DNA from: a virus
Lineage: Duplodnaviria; Heunggongvirae; Uroviricota; Caudoviricetes
Virus record (IMG/VR): IMGVR_UViG_2778261538_000002
Length of the DNA stretch: 38,253 nt
Strand: one strand, 5' to 3'
The notes below the pieces were generated by a model. The model ran no database searches and was not told the DNA's origin. It saw only the letters and a program-made list of their open reading frames with translations. The translations under genes and the position numbers were made by a program. Each line of letters begins with the position of its first letter. Positions within the stretch are counted from its first letter, which is position 1. Shown piece by piece: positions 1 to 36,800 of the stretch.

Positions 1-258
1 ATGCAAACCGTTATTTTTGGTCGTCCGGGTTGCCCTTACTGTGTGCGTGCAAAAGATCTGGCTGAGAAATTGAGCAATGAACGCGATGATTTCCAGTATC
101 AGTATGTAGATATTCGTGCGGAAGGGATCACTAAAGAAGATCTACAACAAAAGGCAGGTAAACCCGTAGAAACCGTGCCGCAGATTTTTGTCGATCAGCA
201 ACATATCGGCGGCTATACCGATTTTGCTGCATGGGTGAAAGAGAATCTGGACGCCTGA
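1..258 (+). CDS. grxA: glutaredoxin 1
   Basis: 85-aa ORF with CPYC redox motif (GRPGCPYCVRAK); matches E. coli GrxA as I recall it; stop TGA at 256-258. Confidence 0.93.
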   Translation: MQTVIFGRPGCPYCVRAKDLAEKLSNERDDFQYQYVDIRAEGITKEDLQQKAGKPVETVPQIFVDQQHIGGYTDFAAWVKENLDA

Positions 259-287
259 TCGTCTGACAAGCCCTCGCATTGAGGGCT

Positions 288-665
288 TTATTGATTTTTT
301 CTGTGCTGTGGTTTAAACAAACTACTGATAAATAAGAAACACAATGCCCCCAGCGCACACCAGAACACCGCACTTAATAACCATGCCAGCTCTTGCCAGA
401 ATGAGCGCGTCGGTGAAAAAAACAGCCGCATAATGAGCATCGAGCAGGGTGCCGCCAGCATTGCGCCAAACAGAGGTTTCAGGACTTCTCTACGATGTGA
501 AAAGAAGCTGGCAACTGCACCAGGAAGAATGAAAAATAGCAAACCGATTTCAGGATGCCCGGCAGCCCGAAAAGCGCCTTTCATGTGCGTCGCCAGAAAA
601 AGACACACCACAATGAAGAGGACAAAACAGCAGATTGCCCCCGCCCAACGTTGTTTATGTTTCAC
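288..665 (-). CDS. ybjM: inner membrane protein YbjM
   Basis: 125-aa hydrophobic ORF convergent with grxA, as in the E. coli K-12 neighbourhood (window is reverse-complemented relative to K-12). Confidence 0.8.
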   Translation of the reverse strand: MKHKQRWAGAICCFVLFIVVCLFLATHMKGAFRAAGHPEIGLLFFILPGAVASFFSHRREVLKPLFGAMLAAPCSMLIMRLFFSPTRSFWQELAWLLSAVFWCALGALCFLFISSLFKPQHRKNQ

Positions 666-934
666 TCGTTCCTCCTGACACTGCGTCTATCGAACACATT
701 TTTCGCCAGTGTGGCGTTCAGTAAGATAAAGCCGCTTCGCATTCCATGCTAATATAGGCCAACGCAATTCATATAGCCGTTGATACCTAATGTGATTACA
801 CTAGTAAAATATATTGTTACTTTACTATCGTTTAGGTGCGCTGAATGAATCTGCGCCCTGAATTCTGGTAAAAAACATTATCGTAAATTACCATTTCTTT
901 CAACAGCTTACTAGTAAACAAGAAGTTAGCCTCC

Positions 935-2620
935 GTGAATATAAACGTCGCCGAATTGTTAAATGGGAATTACATTCTGTTATTATTTGTGGTCCTCGCG
1001 CTTGGGCTATGTCTCGGGAAATTACGACTTGGTTCGATCCAACTGGGTAATTCCATTGGCGTTTTAGTCGTATCGCTGTTATTAGGCCAACAACATTTCA
1101 GCATTAACACCGACGCGCTTAATCTTGGCTTTATGCTGTTTATTTTCTGCGTCGGGGTCGAAGCCGGACCGAACTTTTTTTCCATTTTTTTTCGCGATGG
1201 GAAAAATTACCTAATGTTAGCACTGGTGATGGTTGGCAGTGCGCTGGTGATCGCCTTAGGGTTAGGTAAGCTGTTTGGCTGGGATATTGGCCTGACGGCC
1301 GGTATGTTAGCTGGCTCTATGACGTCGACACCGGTTCTGGTCGGTGCTGGCGATACACTGCGTCATTCCGGCATGGAAAGCAGGCAGCTCTCACTGGCAC
1401 TGGATAATCTGAGCCTCGGGTATGCCTTAACCTATTTAATCGGTCTGGTGAGTTTGATTGTTGGTGCGCGTTACTTGCCGAAATTGCAGCATCAGGACTT
1501 ACAGACCAGCGCCCAGCAAATCGCCCGCGAACGTGGCCTGGACACTGATGCCAACCGTAAGGTTTATTTACCGGTGATCCGCGCCTACCGCGTCGGCCCG
1601 GAGCTGGTGGCCTGGACCGACGGCAAAAATCTGCGTGAACTGGGTATTTATCGACAAACTGGCTGCTACATTGAACGTATTCGACGTAACGGGATTCTGG
1701 CAAATCCAGACGGTGATGCGGTGCTACAAATGGGCGATGAAATAGCGTTGGTAGGCTATCCCGACGCCCACGCCCGACTCGATCCCAGCTTCCGTAACGG
1801 CAAAGAAGTTTTCGATCGTGACCTTCTCGACATGCGTATCGTCACTGAAGAAGTGGTCGTTAAAAACCATAACGCCGTTGGCAAACGTCTCGCACAACTG
1901 AAGTTGACCGATCACGGTTGCTTCCTTAACCGCGTCATTCGTAGCCAGATTGAGATGCCGATAGATGACAACGTCGTGCTTAACAAAGGTGACGTTTTAC
2001 AAGTCAGCGGCGATGCCCGTCGCGTAAAAACCATCGCCGATCGCATCGGCTTTATCTCGATTCACAGCCAGGTCACTGACTTGCTGGCATTCTGCGCCTT
2101 CTTTGTTATTGGGCTGATGATCGGGATGATCACCTTCCAGTTCAGCACATTCAGTTTCGGCATGGGGAACGCTGCCGGGTTGTTATTCGCCGGAATTATG
2201 CTGGGATTTATGCGCGCTAACCACCCGACCTTCGGTTACATTCCGCAGGGTGCATTAAGCATGGTGAAAGAGTTCGGCTTAATGGTGTTTATGGCAGGCG
2301 TTGGTCTGAGCGCCGGTAGCGGTATTAATAACGGCCTGGGCGCGATTGGCGGTCAGATGTTGATTGCCGGATTGATTGTCAGTCTTGTGCCAGTGGTTAT
2401 CTGTTTCTTGTTCGGTGCTTATGTATTGCGAATGAACCGCGCACTGTTGTTCGGCGCAATGATGGGCGCACGCACCTGCGCGCCGGCAATGGAGATCATC
2501 AGTGATACAGCTCGCAGTAACATCCCGGCGCTGGGCTATGCGGGCACCTATGCAATCGCCAACGTCCTGCTGACGCTGGCAGGGACAATCATCGTCATGG
2601 TATGGCCAGGATTAGGATAA
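935..2620 (+). CDS. ybjL: putative AAE-family transporter YbjL
   Basis: 561-aa polytopic membrane ORF with central soluble domains; GTG start at 935; matches my recollection of E. coli YbjL. Confidence 0.88.
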
Positions 2621-2855
2621 AACTGAAGTTGCCCTGAAAATGAAATTTTTTTGCACAACCGCAGAACTTTTCCGCAGGGCATCAGTCTTAATTAGTGCCA
2701 CTGCTTTTCTTTGATGTCCCCATTTTGTGGAGCCCATCAACCCCGCCATTTCGGTTCAAGGTTGATGGGTTTTTTGTTGCCTTAAATTTATGCCGTTTAA
2801 AATCATGATGTTAGAAGCACTGTTTTTTAACGATGGCGACAAAATGGCGGCAGCG
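2621..2855. other. host-prophage junction; attachment site expected here
   Basis: interval between the ybjL stop and the first phage gene (ogr); exact core repeat cannot be defined because the other att lies outside the window. Confidence 0.4.
2733..2776 (+). terminator. rho-independent terminator downstream of ybjL
   Basis: perfect 10-bp inverted repeat cccatcaacc/ggttgatggg (2733-2742 and 2760-2769) followed by TTTTTT; loop is long (17 nt). Confidence 0.5.
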
Positions 2856-4265: not shown

Positions 4266-4747
4266 GACAGCAGCCCTCCCACCGTTTTACTGATATAGCT
4301 TAAGGCAGACGTTGCCGTGTCCTGCAGATTATTCAGTTGCGCACTAAGATCACCGAACATATCGGACAGGGATTCATCCACCCGTTTGAGCGACAAAGTG
4401 AACTCAATCCGGCGCGGCATACCATCGCGGAAAAACTCCGTTTTAGTCTGATTCAGTCCCTCAATCACATACATGCCGTAAATCGTGCCGCTGCCTTCAA
4501 TCAGAGGCCATGCTTTCCCCTGTTCTGCCATCTGCTCCAGTGCCAGCAACGACAGCCTGCCACCTGTTATCTCCGGCATAAGAACACCGGAAAGTGTCAG
4601 CATGTCGTTGTCCGGTCCCAGAAACTGCGTGGACGGACGTCGGTTTACCCGGCTGTTAGCCACATGTCGCCAGCTGCGTTGATACTGCAGTTCCTGATAC
4701 GGAACGGTGCGCAGCATAAACACGTACAATCCCAGCACCATCATCAT
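4262..4747 (-). CDS. U: tail protein U
   Basis: 161-aa ORF; start overlaps the T stop (ATGA); P2 gpU-like. Confidence 0.85.
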   Translation of the reverse strand: MMMVLGLYVFMLRTVPYQELQYQRSWRHVANSRVNRRPSTQFLGPDNDMLTLSGVLMPEITGGRLSLLALEQMAEQGKAWPLIEGSGTIYGMYVIEGLNQTKTEFFRDGMPRRIEFTLSLKRVDESLSDMFGDLSAQLNNLQDTATSALSYISKTVGGLLS

Positions 4748-7700
4748 GCGTCGTATCCCCCCTGATCGCTGTAGTTACTCCTGGCTTTTGCCTTCAGCCT
4801 GCGTTCACGTTCATCAAGCTGGCGTGCCACCTCCCGCGCAATATCCTGCGCACTTTGTCCTGGCTGCGTCTGGATGATGATCTGCGTCGGTGCCTCAATC
4901 CGGTGAACGGGCGGCACAGTAGCTGCGCGACTCACCATCGCTTTGCCGCCTTTCGCGGGAAGCGCCAAAGGATGCAACGGTGGAAGCTCTGCTGGCGCGG
5001 CAGCAACGCCCATCATTCCGGCAACAACGGCAGCCAGTGCAGCTGTATTTCTCCGGCTGGTCACATTTGCCGGGCCGTTAACAATTTCCGGCCCGTTTTC
5101 ACCGACGATGCCAAACTGCCCGCGCGGGATATACCCGCCGCTGTCATACATCCCCGCAAAGCCATATCCCCATGACGGAAAACCACCCGATGGCATCATC
5201 ACTTTGCCGTCTGCATTCACCGTCGCAGGTTGCTGACGCGTCACGCTTTCCGGTAGTTTTGCCTTTGCGGCCTCTTTACTGACAATGCCGAGTTTCTCCA
5301 GCAACCAGGAAACGCCGGATTTCAGGGAGTCCAGCGGATGCATGACCATATTCAGCCCTTCCGCCAGTGCCTCCCCGAATCGTCGCCCCATTGCCGCTGC
5401 GCTCTGCAGTTCGGCAGAGGTCGACTTAACGGGCGTCAGCAGATCAGTAAACCAGCCCCACAGAGCCTGCACTTTGTCACCAATCCACTGAAACACGGGC
5501 TTAAGTGGTTCGAATGCGGCACTGATGGGACCTACCGCCGCTTTGAGTCCTTCCACCACGCCACCGAGAAATGCGGTGATGGGTTGCCAGTATTTCCAGA
5601 CAACCAGCGCCACGCCCGCCAGTGCAGTAACCACAAGACCTATCGGACTGAGCAGAGCACCTAACAGACCAGATATGGCATACAGGGCAACGCGCAGCAT
5701 CACCAGCGGACCGGATGCCAGCACTCGCAACACTGCACCTGCGGCAGTCAGTCCACCGCGCAGTGCCGCCAGTGGATTCATAAACATCAAGGCAACAGCA
5801 CGTAAACCGGATAAACCGGACCGCAACAGTGCAACAGGCGCAGCTGCCACAGTTTTCAGGGCATTTCCCGTCAGTGATGCCGTGCGGCGCAAAGACAACA
5901 GCGGCGCAGTAAGCAAACCCGCACTGCTCCCCGATGAAGCAAACCCGCGTCGCAGCACTGCCAGTGGCGCGCCTGCCAGCCTGGATAACGCGCTGCTGGT
6001 TCGTGTTACTGCATCCGTCACCGAAGGTAACGTCTTGATACCCAGCACAGAGAATCCCAGACGGATGACTGCCAGCGGCCCCAGCACTGCAGCCAACACC
6101 ACAGCCAGGGTGCCGAGGCCCACGGTAACCGCAGCCACAACAGCGGCTACTTTCATCAGTGTGCCCGTCAGTTCCGGGTTAGCTTCCACCCAGCGACGCG
6201 ACGCCCCCGTGACGCTTTTCACCATGTACAAAATATCCATCAGCGGCTGGCGCAGCGTTTCGCCCAGGCTGCTGAAGGTGTTCTGCGCTCCGGTTTTGAC
6301 CAGCAACCACTGCGCAGAAAGTGAATCCTTGTTAATGTCGGATTCTTTCTGCATGGAGCCGAGCGCATCATTGCCCGCTGTCAGTTTTAGCTGGCGCTGC
6401 AGTTCCGGCAGGTTGTTTGCCAGTTTCGCCGCGTCATCGCCAAACTCTTTACCAAACAACATGGTCATGGCAGACAGGCGCTTATCCTGCGGAAGCGCAT
6501 TCACCTTCTCCAGTACGCGCTGGATGGTTCCCATCGCATCCTTCGTCATCTGCTTTTCAATCACTTCAGGATTGAGTTTCAGCAGATTCATTCCTTCAAA
6601 GAAACTCTTGCTCTGCATGGTGGCAATGGACAATTCACGCACCATCGCGTTTGCTGCACTGGCTGCAACCTCCGGCGCAGCACCCAGTGTCAGGAAGGTT
6701 GAACCCAGCGCCGCCGCTTTACGATAATCCAGACGGTCAGCCACACCGCCCAGGCGTTGCATGACATCAATGATGTCTGCCCCTTTCGACATGGCGTTAT
6801 CATCCAGATAGTTCAGCGCGTCACCGAGCTGTTCAATATTGCGGGTAGGGATTTTGTAGAGCTGGGCGATTTTCCCCAGACTTTCTGACAGTTCATCCGC
6901 TGGCAGCTCAAAGGCTGTTGCCGCCTTTGCTGCCGTGCTGGCGAAGGCCAGCAGGTCACGTTTCTGGTCTTCCCAGCTGTCGTCAGGGTTTGCGACGTTC
7001 ATGCGCGCACCACCTTCAACCAGTGCAGCGAAATCCACCGCACCGTTTTCCATCGGCAACTGTTCGCTGGCAGCCTTGATGGCATCCTGCATTTCATAAA
7101 AACGTGCAGTGCGGTTGCCATTATCGTCACGCAGACCATTGACCTGCTTTGCCACACCTTTCATGGCATCTTCCATGCTGGTATAGCTTTTTACTGCCGC
7201 CATCACTGGTGCGCCCATTGCCAGCCCTGCAGCCGTGGTGGTGGCTCCTGCACCTGCAATACGATCACGCACCTCCAGTGAACGAGCATAACTGGCACGC
7301 GCCGCATTCATCCTGCGCTGAGCTTCCCCCAGTCGCTTCAGCCGCGCCTCCTGTTTCGACAATTCCTGGTTATAACGTGATGTTTCACGTGCTAAACGGG
7401 CAGTTGCTCCCGCATCATCTTTCGCAGAAATTCCCGCCCGGTACAGTTCTGCACGCACAAGCGCCGTTTGCTTCTGCAAATATTTTTGTTGTTCTTCCAG
7501 GCGTTGGACTGCCAGCGTTTGCCGACCTAAAGCCACAAGGTGCCGTTGTGATGGTTGTTCCATCGCTTCCAGCTCAGAACTAAGCAAATTTGCCTTCTGT
7601 CTGGCATAGTTCAGCCTGTCGCCTAACTTTTTGTTATCGGCCTGCAGCTTGCGAAATTTTTCCAGGCTGTTACCCGCCTGATTGAGTTGCTTTAATGCGT

Positions 7701-7821
7701 CACGGGAGTTTCTGATTGCGCCAGCCAGCTCTTTCGAACTGGCCTGTGCAGCACGAAATGGGCGGGTGAGCTTGTCAACCGCATTCAGAATCACCTGCAG
7801 ACGCAGGTTATTGTCACTCAT
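4744..7821 (-). CDS. T: tail tape measure protein
   Basis: 1025-aa ORF, N-terminal coiled-coil, Ala/Gly-rich hydrophobic repeats; position between E/E' and U. Confidence 0.9.
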   Translation of the reverse strand: MSDNNLRLQVILNAVDKLTRPFRAAQASSKELAGAIRNSRDALKQLNQAGNSLEKFRKLQADNKKLGDRLNYARQKANLLSSELEAMEQPSQRHLVALGRQTLAVQRLEEQQKYLQKQTALVRAELYRAGISAKDDAGATARLARETSRYNQELSKQEARLKRLGEAQRRMNAARASYARSLEVRDRIAGAGATTTAAGLAMGAPVMAAVKSYTSMEDAMKGVAKQVNGLRDDNGNRTARFYEMQDAIKAASEQLPMENGAVDFAALVEGGARMNVANPDDSWEDQKRDLLAFASTAAKAATAFELPADELSESLGKIAQLYKIPTRNIEQLGDALNYLDDNAMSKGADIIDVMQRLGGVADRLDYRKAAALGSTFLTLGAAPEVAASAANAMVRELSIATMQSKSFFEGMNLLKLNPEVIEKQMTKDAMGTIQRVLEKVNALPQDKRLSAMTMLFGKEFGDDAAKLANNLPELQRQLKLTAGNDALGSMQKESDINKDSLSAQWLLVKTGAQNTFSSLGETLRQPLMDILYMVKSVTGASRRWVEANPELTGTLMKVAAVVAAVTVGLGTLAVVLAAVLGPLAVIRLGFSVLGIKTLPSVTDAVTRTSSALSRLAGAPLAVLRRGFASSGSSAGLLTAPLLSLRRTASLTGNALKTVAAAPVALLRSGLSGLRAVALMFMNPLAALRGGLTAAGAVLRVLASGPLVMLRVALYAISGLLGALLSPIGLVVTALAGVALVVWKYWQPITAFLGGVVEGLKAAVGPISAAFEPLKPVFQWIGDKVQALWGWFTDLLTPVKSTSAELQSAAAMGRRFGEALAEGLNMVMHPLDSLKSGVSWLLEKLGIVSKEAAKAKLPESVTRQQPATVNADGKVMMPSGGFPSWGYGFAGMYDSGGYIPRGQFGIVGENGPEIVNGPANVTSRRNTAALAAVVAGMMGVAAAPAELPPLHPLALPAKGGKAMVSRAATVPPVHRIEAPTQIIIQTQPGQSAQDIAREVARQLDERERRLKAKARSNYSDQGGYDA

Positions 7822-8250
7822 GGCTGGCCCCGCTTCTCTGAATCGCTTTATACCGCCATTCCAGCACTTCGGTCAGCGGCATAACGTCAGTAACGGATGG
7901 CGGCCAGTGAAAGATGGTGGCGATATCAGCCACCAGATCGTCAACCGTCAGGCTGTCGGTAAACCGGCAAGCACCGACTTCTTCAACAAAAAAGTGACAA
8001 CCTCAACCGACATGGCAGTGAGATCTGCCGGGTCCATCTCTGCAATTTCCTGTGCAGTCAGTGCCGGACTGGAAATGCGGGGGATCACGGTCATCATCGC
8101 GTTCACATCCATATCCATAATGGCCTGCAGGCGTGTACCGCGCAGCGCACCAGACTGCGGTTTACGCAGCACAATTTCGGTGATTTCCGTTTTACCGCGC
8201 TTGATAGGGGTATCCAGTTGAATGGTCTTTTCAGTCTGCTTATCACTCAT
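7814..8250 (-). CDS. E+E': tail assembly chaperone E+E' (programmed -1 frameshift product)
   Basis: slippery heptamer TTTTTTG on the - strand (forward 7987-7993); hand translation of the -1 frame gives an open extension ending TGA at 7814-7816 that overlaps the T start (ATG at 7821). Confidence 0.65.
7948..8250 (-). CDS. E: tail assembly chaperone E
   Basis: 100-aa ORF between FII and T; P2 gpE-like. Confidence 0.85.
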   Translation of the reverse strand: MSDKQTEKTIQLDTPIKRGKTEITEIVLRKPQSGALRGTRLQAIMDMDVNAMMTVIPRISSPALTAQEIAEMDPADLTAMSVEVVTFLLKKSVLAGLPTA

Positions 8251-8304
8251 TTTTCTGTCCTGTAAATTGGGTTCTGGCGCGGCATTCCGCGCCGTTCAGA
8301 TACA

Positions 8305-8820
8305 TCAGAGGCCGAGGGCGTTGCGGTGCGCTTCCATCAGGTCCACTCCGTCCACAATTTCCACCATGTTGATAAGGTCCACTTCATAGAGCACCTCACC
8401 ATTGATGGTCAGCTTCGCGTAGCTGTTGGTACTGGTCACTTTGGTGGTGTTACTTTCGCCCGTCTTCCACTCGCCGGAATCCACTTCTTTGTGACGACCA
8501 CGCACCACAAGCTCCACGGCCTGCACTTCCCCGGTATCGTCACGCTGGATAGAGCCGGTAAAGCGCAGCTGGATGCCATCCACAGTGGCTTTGCCCATCT
8601 GCTTAAACAGCAGCAGTTCAGTACCACCAATGGAAAATTCTGTGTCCAGCGCGCTGTCATCAAGCCCCAGATCCACATCCACTGCACCCGGCATTCCGCC
8701 GCCGCGATACTTCTCATATTTGCGGGTGAATTTCGGCAGCGTCAGCGATTCAACGATCCCCTGCCAGTTGTTCCCCTCGTTAAACAGGTTCAGGTGTTTT
8801 AATTTGCGTGGTAAAGCCAT
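8305..8820 (-). CDS. FII: major tail tube protein
   Basis: 171-aa ORF directly downstream of the sheath gene; P2 FII-like. Confidence 0.88.
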   Translation of the reverse strand: MALPRKLKHLNLFNEGNNWQGIVESLTLPKFTRKYEKYRGGGMPGAVDVDLGLDDSALDTEFSIGGTELLLFKQMGKATVDGIQLRFTGSIQRDDTGEVQAVELVVRGRHKEVDSGEWKTGESNTTKVTSTNSYAKLTINGEVLYEVDLINMVEIVDGVDLMEAHRNALGL

Positions 8821-14508: not shown

Positions 14509-14556
14509 GAGAGCGATCCTTGCACAACCGGGTAGAGTGATGTAATACAGAGCGTA

Positions 14557-14574
14557 TGTATGGAGAACCACACA
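14557..14574. promoter_or_regulatory. TGT-N12-ACA dyad (candidate Ogr box) between V and the divergent cargo gene
   Basis: TGTATGGAGAACCACACA read directly; could serve the V operon late promoter or the cargo gene. Confidence 0.35.
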
Positions 14575-14603
14575 AAAGAGAAACAATTTCTAAGGTATTT
14601 AAG

Positions 14604-15470
14604 ATGACACAAATCGCAATTTATGGATTTAATTTTACTAAAAAAATCACATTTGACGGTGGTGAGTTAACTCCTATTTTCAGTTCATGGAGTGAGTTAA
14701 AAAAAAATGGCTGGGCTAATGATAGGTACATCCTCACTGGTTTTTTCAAACCAAACTCGAATAACTACGCCACTCAACAGCAGCTTATTTTTGATTTACA
14801 AGCAGTCCTTAGTTTTATTGAACAAAAAAATGTAATCATTTCAGGAGAACTTGAAAATGATGAAACCCCTTTCAATTTCAAACCATCTCTACCCAAAAAG
14901 CTTGACAAAAAACGAGATAAGGGTGCGGGCATTATCATCATGGAAGATTATTTTGCACCAAACAGCCGAGAAAATTTTATTTGCTTAGCCATGGAAAAAC
15001 TAAATAGTAAAGCCATGCTAAAACAAGATGCCTTTAGAACATCATTTTTTAAATCAATGCTAGCTTTCCGCGACTCAATAAATTATATCGACGTCAGATA
15101 TTATTTATTATTCTCGGCACTAGAAGCACTTTGCAGATTTATTAAAAATGACTACTCCCCTGCCAAAACACCACAAATAATCACTCAGGTTTTAAAAGAA
15201 TATGGTTTTAATGTCGAAAAAACAGGACATACATTAGCTCAAAGAAACATTATGCATTACTGCAAACTCCGTCACTCGCTGTTCCACAATGGTAAATACA
15301 TTGCCTATCTTGATGAAAAAAACTCAGATGGCAAAATTGAAATTCAAGATTACTCATCAAATTTGAATTTACTGGTGCCACTTGTACTAATGAAATTCAT
15401 AGGATTTGATGACAATTATATAAACTGGGACTCATGGATTGATAGGAATCCATTTATCAGTAAAAAGTAA
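14604..15470 (+). CDS. hypothetical protein, AT-rich cargo gene at the P2 orf30 position
   Basis: 288 aa from Met17 of ORF 14556-15470 (AAGG RBS 8 nt upstream); opposite strand to the flanking tail genes V and S; Lys/Asn-rich composition unlike the neighbours; no motif I recognise. Confidence 0.7.
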   Translation: MTQIAIYGFNFTKKITFDGGELTPIFSSWSELKKNGWANDRYILTGFFKPNSNNYATQQQLIFDLQAVLSFIEQKNVIISGELENDETPFNFKPSLPKKLDKKRDKGAGIIIMEDYFAPNSRENFICLAMEKLNSKAMLKQDAFRTSFFKSMLAFRDSINYIDVRYYLLFSALEALCRFIKNDYSPAKTPQIITQVLKEYGFNVEKTGHTLAQRNIMHYCKLRHSLFHNGKYIAYLDEKNSDGKIEIQDYSSNLNLLVPLVLMKFIGFDDNYINWDSWIDRNPFISKK

Positions 15471-24266: not shown

Positions 24267-25346
24267 CTAACATTGTTTACATAAATCAGAAAAACTACCA
24301 CCGAAATAATACAGTGCAGATTTATCATTTAGTTCTTTAAAAACTTCACACGCACGCTGGTGTATCTCAATAGCACTAGATTTATTTCGTCCAATAATAA
24401 CAGTCTCTTTTTCAGTACTATCGCCATCCAGAAAAGTCTTCAAAAGAAAATTAATAATAAAGTCTTCCTTTGGGAAAGAATAACCTATAAAGATCAACAG
24501 ATCTGCTTGTCTCAACTGGGTAGAGGATTTCACAAAAGCTGTCTTAAAGTATTTATCCCCATAGTCTTGTTCATTTGAAGGCAAGATAATATTTGGAACA
24601 ACTTTTGCGTTCAATAATGAATCATAATCTATTTTAAAACCATCCCTTGCAGCAACAACCTCAAATCCTCCATTAAGCTTATACAAACCTATACCTTTAG
24701 GCTGAGGACACACTAATATATTATTATGATGCACAGGAAAACCCCGATTAACTGAACGTTCAGGGAATGCATGATGTAGCACTTTATCAATAACTATATC
24801 GTAGTTTGTTGTGACTACATCCAGTGCTGAAGCTTCCTGTAAACTCTTAAAGAAAGAAATAATATTCCTTTTATTCTGCCCAAATTTTGCAGTTTGACTT
24901 AGCTTTAAATCATTTGCCGGTATTTTTTTTGCAAACTTATTTTTTACATATAGTTTTACTTGTGCCTCAAACAACTCAAGCGTATGCCTATCAAGATACG
25001 ACGGCAATAAACTTGGATATCGCTTATAAACATCCAATGCATATTTAAAACTCTTGAAAACATTAGCTTTGTCATCTAAACCTGCATTAGCATCCGCCCA
25101 TTTAAATTTAAGACTGTCGAACAAAGAAAAAAAACCATACTCATCAATATTTTCTAATGCTTCGTCTTCAGAGATGGAAAAGACTTCATTACTCAATGGG
25201 TATTTGTCATCCCAGGCTTTAGAAAATCCTGCTCCGAGAAAAACACATACTCTTCGCTCTCTTATTTTTGATTTCAATGTGGCGAAGGATGTAATTTCTA
25301 AATTATTAGGTGTCAAAATATCACCATCATAAGCAAAGCTAGTCAT
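24267..25346 (-). CDS. SIR2-like domain protein (candidate NADase effector)
   Basis: 359 aa; RVCVFLGAGFS Rossmann motif near the N-terminus, TTNYD motif, His cluster (VLHH, PVHH) and IFIGYSFP motif, which I recognise as the SIR2_2 (PF13289-type) pattern; AT-rich; starts 14 nt after the ATPase stop. Confidence 0.7.
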   Translation of the reverse strand: MTSFAYDGDILTPNNLEITSFATLKSKIRERRVCVFLGAGFSKAWDDKYPLSNEVFSISEDEALENIDEYGFFSLFDSLKFKWADANAGLDDKANVFKSFKYALDVYKRYPSLLPSYLDRHTLELFEAQVKLYVKNKFAKKIPANDLKLSQTAKFGQNKRNIISFFKSLQEASALDVVTTNYDIVIDKVLHHAFPERSVNRGFPVHHNNILVCPQPKGIGLYKLNGGFEVVAARDGFKIDYDSLLNAKVVPNIILPSNEQDYGDKYFKTAFVKSSTQLRQADLLIFIGYSFPKEDFIINFLLKTFLDGDSTEKETVIIGRNKSSAIEIHQRACEVFKELNDKSALYYFGGSFSDLCKQC

Positions 25347-25359
25347 GTTTTTCTCACGC

Positions 25360-26589
25360 TTAGTTTTTTATATCAAGAAAAGCTGGAACTAATCCAAATT
25401 CGCCACGTAAATATTTGGCAGACACTTTAGCATCTTTCCTTACAGAAAATACCGTAGCATTAGTTATTATCGACGCTTTAGATGAATCCTTGACTATAAT
25501 ATTAAGCTCATCTCTTCTAAACACATCATCTAATAAAGGAATATTATGTGTAGACATAATAAACTGCACACCATTTTTACGGCAGGTTTTATCAAATATT
25601 TTTTTGATTAGTGCACTTGCCAAAGAATAGTGAATAGATGAATCTATTTCATCCACATAAAGTGTAAAATCATATTCACTAGCCCAAATCAATATTGCTA
25701 AAAATGTTAAAACATTTAGTGTGCCTTGGGAAAAAAATTCATCCCTACGGTCAGGGCCTATTCTAGTAAAATCACCATCATCATTTTTTATGAGATAAAC
25801 AAATTTATACTCATTATCTTCGCCAAATCTTACAAATTCAACTTTATCTATATGCAGCGGCGACTGAATAACCATTTCATTATAGGTATTTAAAATTCTT
25901 TGACCACTCTCATTTAATTTTTCATTTCCTTCCTCACCTGATAACTGGCGCTTAAGTTGTCCTTCAACAAATTTAAGACTTGGATTTTTGAATTTTTCAG
26001 AGTAATAAGGCAATTGTTTTAATGCCCAGCGTTGGGTTTCAACAAGAGCATCAATTTCTAAAGATTTTGCAAAAGTTACAACAGCTCCACTTTCTCTTAA
26101 GACAGGATTAATCAACGACTCGTATTTTTTTAAGTCGGGCTTTTTGAAAACCAACCCATTTTCATTGCGAATAAAAATACATTGTTCCCTTGCACTTTTT
26201 CTTATCGGTCTAATGTATAAATACTCATCTACAATAACTTCATTTAAAACTGACACACCATAACGGACGAAGTTTTTTTGCTCTTCATCAATCAGTATCG
26301 CTTCATAGGAAGTAGGTTTGTTACGACATTCCTTATTTAGAAGGAAAGGCATATGCAATTTGTGTAATGTGTCACTATGAATTGAATTTGCAAATTCAGT
26401 AATAGCATTTATTAATTGTGTTTTACCAACACCATTTCCGCCTATTAATGCGGCAAATCTGTTTACTCTTAAACCATTCGCTAATGTCACGATATGTTCA
26501 GGATGCTCATCCCCAATTGAGGAAGCAAAACTAAGAACCTGTCTTTCGCGAAAGCTCTTGTAATTTTCTAAACTGAATGCAACTAGCAT
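25360..26589 (-). CDS. ABC/AAA_15-21-type ATPase (candidate defense sensor)
   Basis: 409 aa; Walker A GGNGVGKT, Walker B LYVDEID, H-loop-like FIMSTHN; GAGGA RBS; AT-rich; no TOPRIM or coiled-coil evident. Confidence 0.75.
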   Translation of the reverse strand: MLVAFSLENYKSFRERQVLSFASSIGDEHPEHIVTLANGLRVNRFAALIGGNGVGKTQLINAITEFANSIHSDTLHKLHMPFLLNKECRNKPTSYEAILIDEEQKNFVRYGVSVLNEVIVDEYLYIRPIRKSAREQCIFIRNENGLVFKKPDLKKYESLINPVLRESGAVVTFAKSLEIDALVETQRWALKQLPYYSEKFKNPSLKFVEGQLKRQLSGEEGNEKLNESGQRILNTYNEMVIQSPLHIDKVEFVRFGEDNEYKFVYLIKNDDGDFTRIGPDRRDEFFSQGTLNVLTFLAILIWASEYDFTLYVDEIDSSIHYSLASALIKKIFDKTCRKNGVQFIMSTHNIPLLDDVFRRDELNIIVKDSSKASIITNATVFSVRKDAKVSAKYLRGEFGLVPAFLDIKN

Positions 26590-34614: not shown

Positions 34615-35733
34615 ATGTCTAGAAGTTTTGCTATTTGGGGATGCCGAAACTACGCTAAAGGCCCAGGAGAGGATTATAATGAGACTCAAGCAGATTTTAT
34701 AAACGAACTACACATCAACTTTTGGAATATCACATCCCAAAAATGCTATCATCTAGATTTTGGCATATCATTTTCTCGCCCCCAAGATAATGAAATTTCA
34801 GAACAGGGTGCAATCTGTTTATTTTTACCGTTTGTAAAAGAAAAAGATGACTTCATTGATTTAAGTACGAACCTAGATAGCAGCAAAGAACTGATCACCG
34901 CGGTTTTTAATGAATACGTCATAAATAAAGACTCAATAAACGAGAAACACTTATTATTAAATTTAACACGAAAAGGTAAACTAATAGTTAATACAAAACT
35001 TGATTTTCAAGGGGGGGCATTCGACAAAAGAATCACATTGAGAAAGAGGAATGATGGGACATATGTATTTTTCCATCTGCAGGATTGTTTGTCTAATTGC
35101 AATAATTGCAATTACTACATCAGATTCAGAATTAACCTAAATGAATCTGATGTTGAAGCAATTGTTAAAACATTCTATCCAAAAGATTTATTCTTAAAAA
35201 GCAATATTGAACGTTCTGATATTATAGATTTCAGAATTAACGAACAAAGAAATTTGCCAAACGAAGTCGCAACCACACTGGCCAGCGCCTCTTGCACTCC
35301 AAGCAAATATCATTTTTTCGTTATACGAGATATGGTTGACGAAGCATCGGCATCAGGTTCAAGCTATCAAGGTTGTCGTATTCTTGAATCAGAGACATGG
35401 AAAAAATACTTTTCAAATAATGTCAATTTTGGTAAGAACGATCCTATGATTTACCACTGGAAAGCTAAAAAGGATGATGGCGCACGGCTAGGTGACTTCT
35501 CTGTAGTAGTGAAGTTCAAGACTACTAAATCAAAAATTAGTAAAATATTTACATATATGTTCTATGCTGCAGCCATAGCATACATAATGAAATTTATTCC
35601 AACAGATGGTGTGCATAAAGACATTTATCTAATTTGCACCATTGCATTTATTGTAGCTTACATTGCCGCTCACTTTATTAAACCACAAAAATTATCCAAC
35701 TTTATTGCACTGGTGAAAAAATGGAAAAATTAA
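34615..35733 (+). CDS. hypothetical protein with C-terminal transmembrane helices (cargo gene 1)
   Basis: 372 aa; large soluble N-terminal region, two hydrophobic helices near the C-terminus; AT-rich; 32 nt after the cI stop. Confidence 0.7.
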   Translation: MSRSFAIWGCRNYAKGPGEDYNETQADFINELHINFWNITSQKCYHLDFGISFSRPQDNEISEQGAICLFLPFVKEKDDFIDLSTNLDSSKELITAVFNEYVINKDSINEKHLLLNLTRKGKLIVNTKLDFQGGAFDKRITLRKRNDGTYVFFHLQDCLSNCNNCNYYIRFRINLNESDVEAIVKTFYPKDLFLKSNIERSDIIDFRINEQRNLPNEVATTLASASCTPSKYHFFVIRDMVDEASASGSSYQGCRILESETWKKYFSNNVNFGKNDPMIYHWKAKKDDGARLGDFSVVVKFKTTKSKISKIFTYMFYAAAIAYIMKFIPTDGVHKDIYLICTIAFIVAYIAAHFIKPQKLSNFIALVKKWKN

Positions 35734-36800
35734 AACACATTCAGTTTAATGAAGTTAATTTTAACGATGTTTTTTTTGACTCCTTAAAAAAAGACTATCA
35801 ACATGGATTTATCGATTGGTTCAATAAAAAATGTAATTCTATCGAAGAAAAAGCTTATGTCTTATATAATGATGACAACACAATTGATGGTTTTTTATAC
35901 TTGAAAATTGAGCGTGGTATTATTGACGACGTAATACCACCTTTGACTCGTGCTAAACATCTAAAAATAGGCACATTTAAATTCAACCCGAAGGGGACTC
36001 TACGAGGACAAAGATTCCTCAAAAAGATTTTTGATCATGCACTAAAAGAAAAAGTAGATGATATCTATGTGACTGTTTTTGAAAAACATGATTATTTAAT
36101 TAGACTATTCAAAATTTATGGTTTTATTCATGTTGCTACAAAACAAACTGCTAATGGTAGTGAACAAGTCTTAGTAAGAGAGATGAATAAAAATCATCTT
36201 ACAGGGGATATTTTGTCTGATTATCCGTATATAAATAATAGCAACGATGAAAACAAATATCTGTTATCCATATATCCTGAATTCCATACAAAACTGTTTC
36301 CTGATTCGATACTCACCACAGAGTCCCCTGATATAATCACGGATGTATCTCATGCGAATAGCATTAGAAAAATATATATATGCAGAATGCATGACGTAAA
36401 AAAAATAAAAAGACATGACATTTTAGTTATTTACAGAACAAGTGACAAAGAAAACAGAGCGTATTATCGCTCTGTCGCAACGTCATTATGTGTAGTTGAA
36501 GATATTAGACATATTGATTCTTTTTATAGTGAAAAAGAATTCATACAGTATTGTACACGATACAGTGTATTCTCTGAAAATGAATTAAAAAAATCCTATC
36601 AAACAAAAAGATACCCTTACATTATTAGTTTTACATATAATCTAGCTTTACCTAAAAGAATAAACCGTGCTAAACTAATCAAAGAAATTGGTTTAAATCC
36701 TAAAAACCGTTGGGGTGTTGTTAAATTAACCGATGAGCAATTTGACGATATAATTAAACTTGGTGCTGTAGATGAAAGTATTATTGTCAATAAAACCTGA
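35721..36800 (+). CDS. hypothetical protein, N-terminal GNAT-like fold fused to an unknown C-terminal domain (cargo gene 2)
   Basis: 359 aa; N-terminal 150 aa have GNAT-like topology (…KIGTFKF…RGQRFLKKIF…YLIRLFKIYGF…); overlaps neighbouring genes at both ends. Confidence 0.65.
   Translation: MEKLKHIQFNEVNFNDVFFDSLKKDYQHGFIDWFNKKCNSIEEKAYVLYNDDNTIDGFLYLKIERGIIDDVIPPLTRAKHLKIGTFKFNPKGTLRGQRFLKKIFDHALKEKVDDIYVTVFEKHDYLIRLFKIYGFIHVATKQTANGSEQVLVREMNKNHLTGDILSDYPYINNSNDENKYLLSIYPEFHTKLFPDSILTTESPDIITDVSHANSIRKIYICRMHDVKKIKRHDILVIYRTSDKENRAYYRSVATSLCVVEDIRHIDSFYSEKEFIQYCTRYSVFSENELKKSYQTKRYPYIISFTYNLALPKRINRAKLIKEIGLNPKNRWGVVKLTDEQFDDIIKLGAVDESIIVNKT

Follow-up and report, generated by a model that had tools for sequence, protein, structure and literature searches.

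The 38,253 nucleotide virus record IMGVR_UViG_2778261538_000002, referred to in its entirety as the window, contains two overlapping reading frames between its tail tube and tape-measure genes, and these raise the question of whether, as in phage P2, one start codon serves two tail assembly chaperones that differ by a programmed −1 frameshift. All of the features of this region lie on the minus strand. Gene E (bp 7948–8250) begins at ATG 8250, 7 nt downstream of the Shine-Dalgarno sequence AGGA (bp 8258–8261), ends at TGA 7950–7948, and encodes the 100 aa putative tail assembly chaperone gpE. Its upstream neighbor is the tail tube gene FII (bp 8305–8820; full-length match to Pfam PF04985, 3.5e-59), and downstream lies the tape-measure gene T (bp 4744–7821, ATG at 7821), whose 1025 aa product matches PF10145 (PhageMin_Tail). 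The proposed shift site, T_TTT_TTG (bp 7987–7993), is made up of E codons 87 and 88 and the preceding T; it has the X_XXY_YYZ phase (T TTT TTG) that tandem tRNA slippage requires. The original prediction had placed the composite E+E′ coding region at bp 7814–8250, with a TTTTTTG 13 codons before the E stop and a −1 frame that stays open for about 59 codons. Minus-strand translation bears this out: the TTG is 13 codons ahead of the gene E stop codon, and from bp 7993 the −1 frame runs for 59 sense codons (the two slip codons plus 57 new residues) to TGA 7816–7814, with no internal stop between the slippery site and bp 7816. The E′ extension occupies bp 7814–7986, and its first new codon, GTT (bp 7987–7985), has its G in common with the heptamer. 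The predicted fusion protein, gpE+E′, is 145 aa long and consists of E residues 1–88 followed by the 57 new residues. The E′ TGA had also been described as overlapping the T initiation codon; the end of E′ does overlap the first 8 nt of T, but in the junction sequence, ATGAGTGA, the TGA does not touch the ATG itself.

Both parts of the predicted fusion belong to recognized protein families. The gpE protein matches Pfam PF10109 (Phage_TAC_7), which is described as “tail assembly chaperone proteins E, or 41 or 14”; the match (1e-18, 67.5 bits against a cutoff of 25) extends over residues 9–88 and covers profile positions 1–78 of 79. It also matches PHROG 103 (“tail protein,” 4e-44). E′ matches PF06528 (Phage_P2_GpE) over profile positions 1–36 of 37, with values of 5.8e-19 when searched alone and 3.9e-18 within the fusion (cutoff 23 bits), and it is matched by PHROGs 1756 and 6416, the first of which covers fusion residues 85–144 and so crosses the junction. 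An NCBIfam scan gave no model matching E, E′ or the fusion, and a PDB sequence search gave no solved homolog. Judged by its sequence, the locus is a P2-type gpE/gpE+E′ frameshifted tail chaperone in a P2-family prophage of Escherichia coli.

The P2 E/E′ arrangement that had been proposed for this locus is well supported by the two Pfam domains, the gene order, the heptamer geometry and the protein sequence; the predicted fusion and P2 gpE+E′ share 48% identity over 141 residues, in an alignment that is gap-free across the junction. In P2 (GenBank AF063097) T_TTT_TTG is present in the equal phase, the −1 frame is 59 codons long, the overlap with T is 8 nt, the Pfam domains are identical, and E/E′ lies between FII and T in the FETUD order; the gene order in the window is FI-FII-E/E′-T-U-D, where FI and FII are identified by Pfam as sheath and tube. 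The two loci differ in detail. The gene E product is 100 aa here and 91 aa in P2, the fusion 145 and 142 aa, the zero-frame tail from the TTG to the stop 13 and 7 codons, respectively, and the residues directly before the slip site are EVVT here and KVVG in P2. The P2 shift occurs at TTTTTTG and gives a 91 aa E protein and a 142 aa E+E′ protein, and the P2-like phages of Burkholderia keep the frameshift arrangement (PMC3091744); the P2 frameshift was demonstrated in 2002, according to the citation of Christie et al. (2002) in PMC3091744. The P2 GenBank record gives E+E′ as a joined CDS (“-1 frameshift; essential tail protein”) with a misc_feature, “site of -1 translational frameshift,” at the heptamer homologous to that of the window. 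The PSP3 record annotates the frameshift in the same manner, and a note in the Fels-2 record states that the product “forms functional gpE+E' if translational slippage occurs.” When the geometry was recomputed for P2, PSP3, ENT90, Fels-2, two Klebsiella phages and a Yersinia phage, each had the 8 nt overlap with T, an in-phase T_TTT_TTG (TTTTTTC in the Yersinia phage) and a −1 frame of 59–60 codons. Fels-2 (Felsduovirus; STM2699/STM2697.1) and Klebsiella phage 4LV2017 (Elveevirus), whose DNA identity to the present sequence is 86% and 96%, respectively, have identical geometry with only point substitutions, and their records give E and E′ as two unjoined CDSs. The E/E′ frameshift here is already known as a textbook case of recoding, and the prophage family that carries it is very common: a near-identical copy of the 701 bp E/E′ region, with 95–98% DNA identity, is present in 1001 of 5426 complete E. 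coli genomes, about a fifth of them.

We estimate a probability of about 93% that gpE and gpE+E′ are produced from one start codon by programmed −1 ribosomal slippage on U_UUU_UUG. The basis for this at the present locus is sequence anatomy, family membership and conservation, and the occurrence of the shift, its efficiency and the protein contacts are inferred from P2 and λ. Ribosomes would start at ATG 8250, and most of them should read T_TTT_TTG in frame and stop at bp 7948 to give gpE. A minority would slip back one nucleotide, as the tRNA-Phe paired with UUU and the tRNA-Leu paired with UUG shift onto UUU UUU, and would then read the 57 further −1 codons to TGA 7816–7814 to give gpE+E′ as a minor product. 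The N-terminal chaperone domain common to both products would, by analogy with λ gpG and gpGT, coat the tape-measure protein gpT, and the E′ domain carried by a fraction of the molecules may, by the same analogy, recruit the tube protein FII. The frequency of slipping would set the fixed gpE to gpE+E′ ratio that tail assembly needs.

The λ slippery heptamer is G_GGA_AAG, and λ is a phage with a noncontractile tail whose proteins have no detectable sequence similarity to those of this locus. The analogy to λ G/GT that had been drawn for the window appears apt as regards organization, namely overlapping ORFs upstream of the tape-measure gene whose products would share an N-terminus and be joined by a programmed shift. 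According to the summary given in PMC5009743 of the work of Levin et al. (1993) and Xu et al. (2004, 2013, 2014), λ has two overlapping ORFs between its major tail and tape-measure genes, a −1 shift late in the first ORF yields a minor fusion protein, and tail assembly needs a fixed ratio of the two products.

The bare TTTTTTG sequence is not rare, since the window has 22 copies against 15.2 expected. A census of heptamers with the in-phase X_XXY_YYZ pattern found 47 of them in the window's 32 likely genes (10,138 codons), and the median open run in the −1 frame after these is about 8 codons; a −1 run that continues for more than 100 nt past the zero-frame stop follows only two of the 47, the E/E′ site and one at the T/U junction. 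A chance origin of the E/E′ heptamer is ruled out because it is conserved across relatives, invariant even in P2, where DNA identity is ∼66% in the part that aligns. The T/U-junction heptamer, G_GGG_GGA (bp 4756–4762), is in phase four codons before the T stop, and the −1 frame at this point is that of gene U; a slip there would yield a T-U fusion, and Fels-2 keeps the site as G_GGG_GGG. It is probably coincidental, since T and U do not overlap in P2.

Two scans of viral contigs added 160 loci to the comparison, which includes 134 distinct E-E′ nucleotide sequences. The combination of an in-phase T6+N and a −1 ORF of 59–61 codons is found in 133 of these, where the heptamer is TTTTTTG in 121, TTTTTTA in 11 and TTTTTTC in one; among the 124 relatives in which the T start could be located, the end of E′ overlaps T by 4–23 nt (8 nt in 84). 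The zero-frame tail past the slip site is 7 or 13 codons long, depending on the clade. The spread of this arrangement is considerable, as a tblastn search of 50,697 phage records with the fusion as query matched 419, with hosts that range from Escherichia to Burkholderia, Ralstonia, Pseudomonas, Mannheimia and Vibrio, and among the 40 of these records that were listed, 38 have matches that reach E′, all 38 in two pieces and two frames. In the 133 distinct sequences the six T columns have an entropy of 0, and adjacent columns have about 1 bit. The only relative without the frameshift arrangement is L010 (IMGVR_UViG_2734481921_000002, bp ∼1450–1460), in which the run is T8 compared to T7 in its closest relatives, and E and E′ form one continuous 142 aa ORF; the explanation is a sequencing error in the homopolymer or, alternatively, a natural mutant that makes only E+E′.

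That the conserved element is a homopolymeric T run, whose seventh base varies (G, A or C), and that the extra T of L010 fuses the frames in the DNA and thereby marks the run as prone to indels, are features also expected if it were the RNA polymerase that slips and adds one U within T6, in which case the fusion would have Phe rather than Leu at position 88. Bacterial transcriptional slippage has been described for runs of about nine A or T (PMC5009743), but the run is only six T in the window and seven in some relatives. In addition, the T run is always in the X_XXY_YYZ phase, which matters to tRNA re-pairing and is irrelevant to polymerase slippage, and in P2 the event is annotated and cited as a translational frameshift. 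Transcriptional slippage seems very unlikely to be the main source of the fusion, and ribosomal slippage is the reading that the phase of the run favors.

Codon-position variability gives a second view of where the reading frame changes. Upstream of the heptamer, position 3 of frame 0 is the most variable (1.20 vs 0.75 and 0.49), and downstream of the longest E stop it is position 3 of frame −1 (1.01 vs 0.54 and 0.31); in sliding windows, the switch in wobble phase falls exactly at the heptamer. This bears on how E′ is currently annotated. RefSeq/PGAP (for example NZ_CP018957.1) presents bp 7817–7933 as a free-standing 39 aa “GpE family phage tail protein,” with its start at an in-frame GTG inside E′ (bp 7931–7933), in near-identical E. 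coli and Klebsiella records. If this were correct, E′ would be a separate small gene whose free GpE-family peptide requires no shift of frame. The annotation is similar in several phage records, and an in-frame Met or Val codon inside E′ is conserved across the family (L[MV]AD; GTG here and ATG in P2-type phages). However, the anti-SD profile has no Shine-Dalgarno signal ahead of GTG 7933, and from the heptamer on, 20 codons upstream of that GTG, the −1 frame is already free of stops and the wobble variability already follows it. Residues encoded ahead of the internal GTG or ATG are conserved as well: from the fifth codon past the slip, G91, L99, D103 and L104 are invariant in the −1 frame. 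The PHROG 1756 match likewise spans the junction, and a separate start leaves the in-phase invariance of T6 unexplained. With both the coding signal and the conservation beginning at the heptamer, independent initiation of E′ at GTG 7933 was rejected and is to be considered extremely improbable. Because E′ is annotated as a free 39 aa gene and not as a ribosomal-slippage CDS, the 145 aa fusion is missing from the protein databases. The practical value of recognizing the frameshift here lies in annotation and not in new biology.

If programmed ribosomal slippage joins the two frames, the neighborhood of the heptamer might be expected to contain stimulatory elements. On the 3′ side, the folding of the 104 nt that begin at the heptamer is no more stable than that of shuffled sequences (z = −1.34), and z averages −0.53 for 77 distinct relatives. 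By the criterion used for dnaX- and IS-type sites, a 3′ stem-loop or pseudoknot 5–9 nt downstream, neither the window nor the family z values give such an element, and no downstream structure has been reported for P2 and its relatives either (PMC3091744). A weak 6 bp hairpin, GUCGGU-12 nt-ACCGAC (bp 7955–7978; about −7.8 kcal/mol in isolation), does lie 8 nt downstream of the heptamer, and Klebsiella relatives have one compensatory change in it from U-A to C-G. It is absent from the minimum free energy fold of the region and is not conserved beyond the window's clade, so its role as a stimulator is doubtful and it was set aside. In view of the lack of a clear downstream structure, the efficiency of the shift would rest on the heptamer and possibly on a Shine-Dalgarno-like motif that lies upstream of it.

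This upstream motif is GAGGT (bp 8000–8004) in the window, where 7 nt separate its GG core from the heptamer; at −10.3 kcal/mol it is the strongest anti-SD-complementary site in the window's E/E′ region, and it is a candidate 5′ modulator. In P2-type phages the motif is AAGGTGATC, and it is the strongest site of the E/E′ region in nearly all of the loci compared (L001–L169). In 123 distinct relatives, complementarity to the anti-SD at positions −11 to −2 averages −11.2 kcal/mol, compared to a regional mean of −2.4, and the profile of the 380 nt region has only two troughs, this one and the T ribosome-binding site. Of 27 distinct contexts, 26 have G as the last base of the codon at −11 to −9, although the residue encoded there may be K, E, V, R, Q or A, and the codon choices across the motif lean toward its retention, falling at a median 5th percentile of the synonymous alternatives. 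In the window's own clade, on the other hand, codon choice is unremarkable (synonymous percentile 0.31) and the motif is only GAGGT; the EVVT residues that take the place of P2's KVVG account for this weaker motif. The arrangement resembles the E. coli dnaX cassette (internal Shine-Dalgarno, A_AAA_AAG and stem-loop) in having an anti-SD-complementary motif before the heptamer. It differs in the absence of a convincing 3′ stem-loop and in its spacer, which is 7 nt from the GG core here, against 10 nt in dnaX and an optimum of 9–14 nt; a spacing of 7 nt is longer than the 3 nt typical of +1 stimulators and shorter than the 9–14 nt of −1 stimulators. We suggest only tentatively, and with the odds rather against it, that the upstream motif (RRGGTGATC in most Peduoviridae and GAGGT here) is a selected 5′ modulator that acts at a noncanonical spacing of 7 nt. 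The efficiency of the P2-type shift is reported to be 2- to 3-fold above that of λ (PMC5009743), and such a modulator, if it is one, could help to account for this without a 3′ structure.

It had been concluded from the frameshift site that the tail assembly module is intact. Such a conclusion goes too far when drawn from the site alone, but it stands at the level of ORFs when the genes themselves are checked: the 14 tail genes D, U, T, E, FII, FI, tail-fiber assembly, fiber, I, J, W, V, S and R are all present as full-length ORFs, each with a Pfam match that exceeds the gathering score. In eleven of them the match covers a Pfam model end to end or nearly so, and the coverage is partial for gpD (28–302 of 305), gpJ (112–254 of 255) and gpW (5–85 of 96). 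These findings also bear on whether the E/E′ arrangement might be an inert relic, inherited in a defective prophage in which the frameshift has no present function. Decay is frequent in prophages, but besides the intact tail genes, replication gene A, a CI-type repressor gene and a CII-like regulator gene are present as ORFs with strong Pfam matches, and the region is 95–98% identical to isolated Klebsiella and Escherichia phages. The P2-family prophage, which lies in a segment of an E. coli chromosome, is 95–97% identical to Klebsiella phage 4LV2017 and to an Escherichia phage record, and 86% identical to Fels-2. There is hardly any likelihood that the arrangement is such a relic. More generally, an intact slip site together with intact neighboring genes is a reasonable marker of a usable tail module in P2-like prophages.

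The left end of the window (bp 1–2700, plus strand) is host DNA that includes grxA-ybjM-ybjL and matches E. coli strain A42 at 100% identity. Similarity to the genomes of P2-like phages sets in at bp ∼2665–2890, no more than about 300 nt past the end of ybjL at bp 2620. Between the capsid/terminase module and the replication genes lies a pair of minus-strand cargo genes (bp 24,267–26,589) that encode an AAA_21/AbiLi-like ATPase (bp 25,360–26,589; PADLOC AbiLi, 2e-51) and, adjoining it, a SIR2_2-domain protein (bp 24,267–25,346). Together they resemble an anti-phage defense pair in a P2 hotspot. At the end of the prophage, just beyond the CI-type repressor gene, are two further ORFs; the second of these (bp 35,721–36,800, plus strand; 359 aa) matches the PADLOC candidate defense family PDC-M11A (7e-139), and its upstream neighbor (bp 34,615–35,733; 372 aa) has no Pfam or PADLOC match. 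Finally, a 304 aa ORF (bp 14,556–15,470, plus strand), also without a Pfam or PADLOC match, is encoded on the strand opposite to the tail genes, between baseplate gene V and tail-completion gene S, and it is a possible moron or cargo gene within the tail operon.
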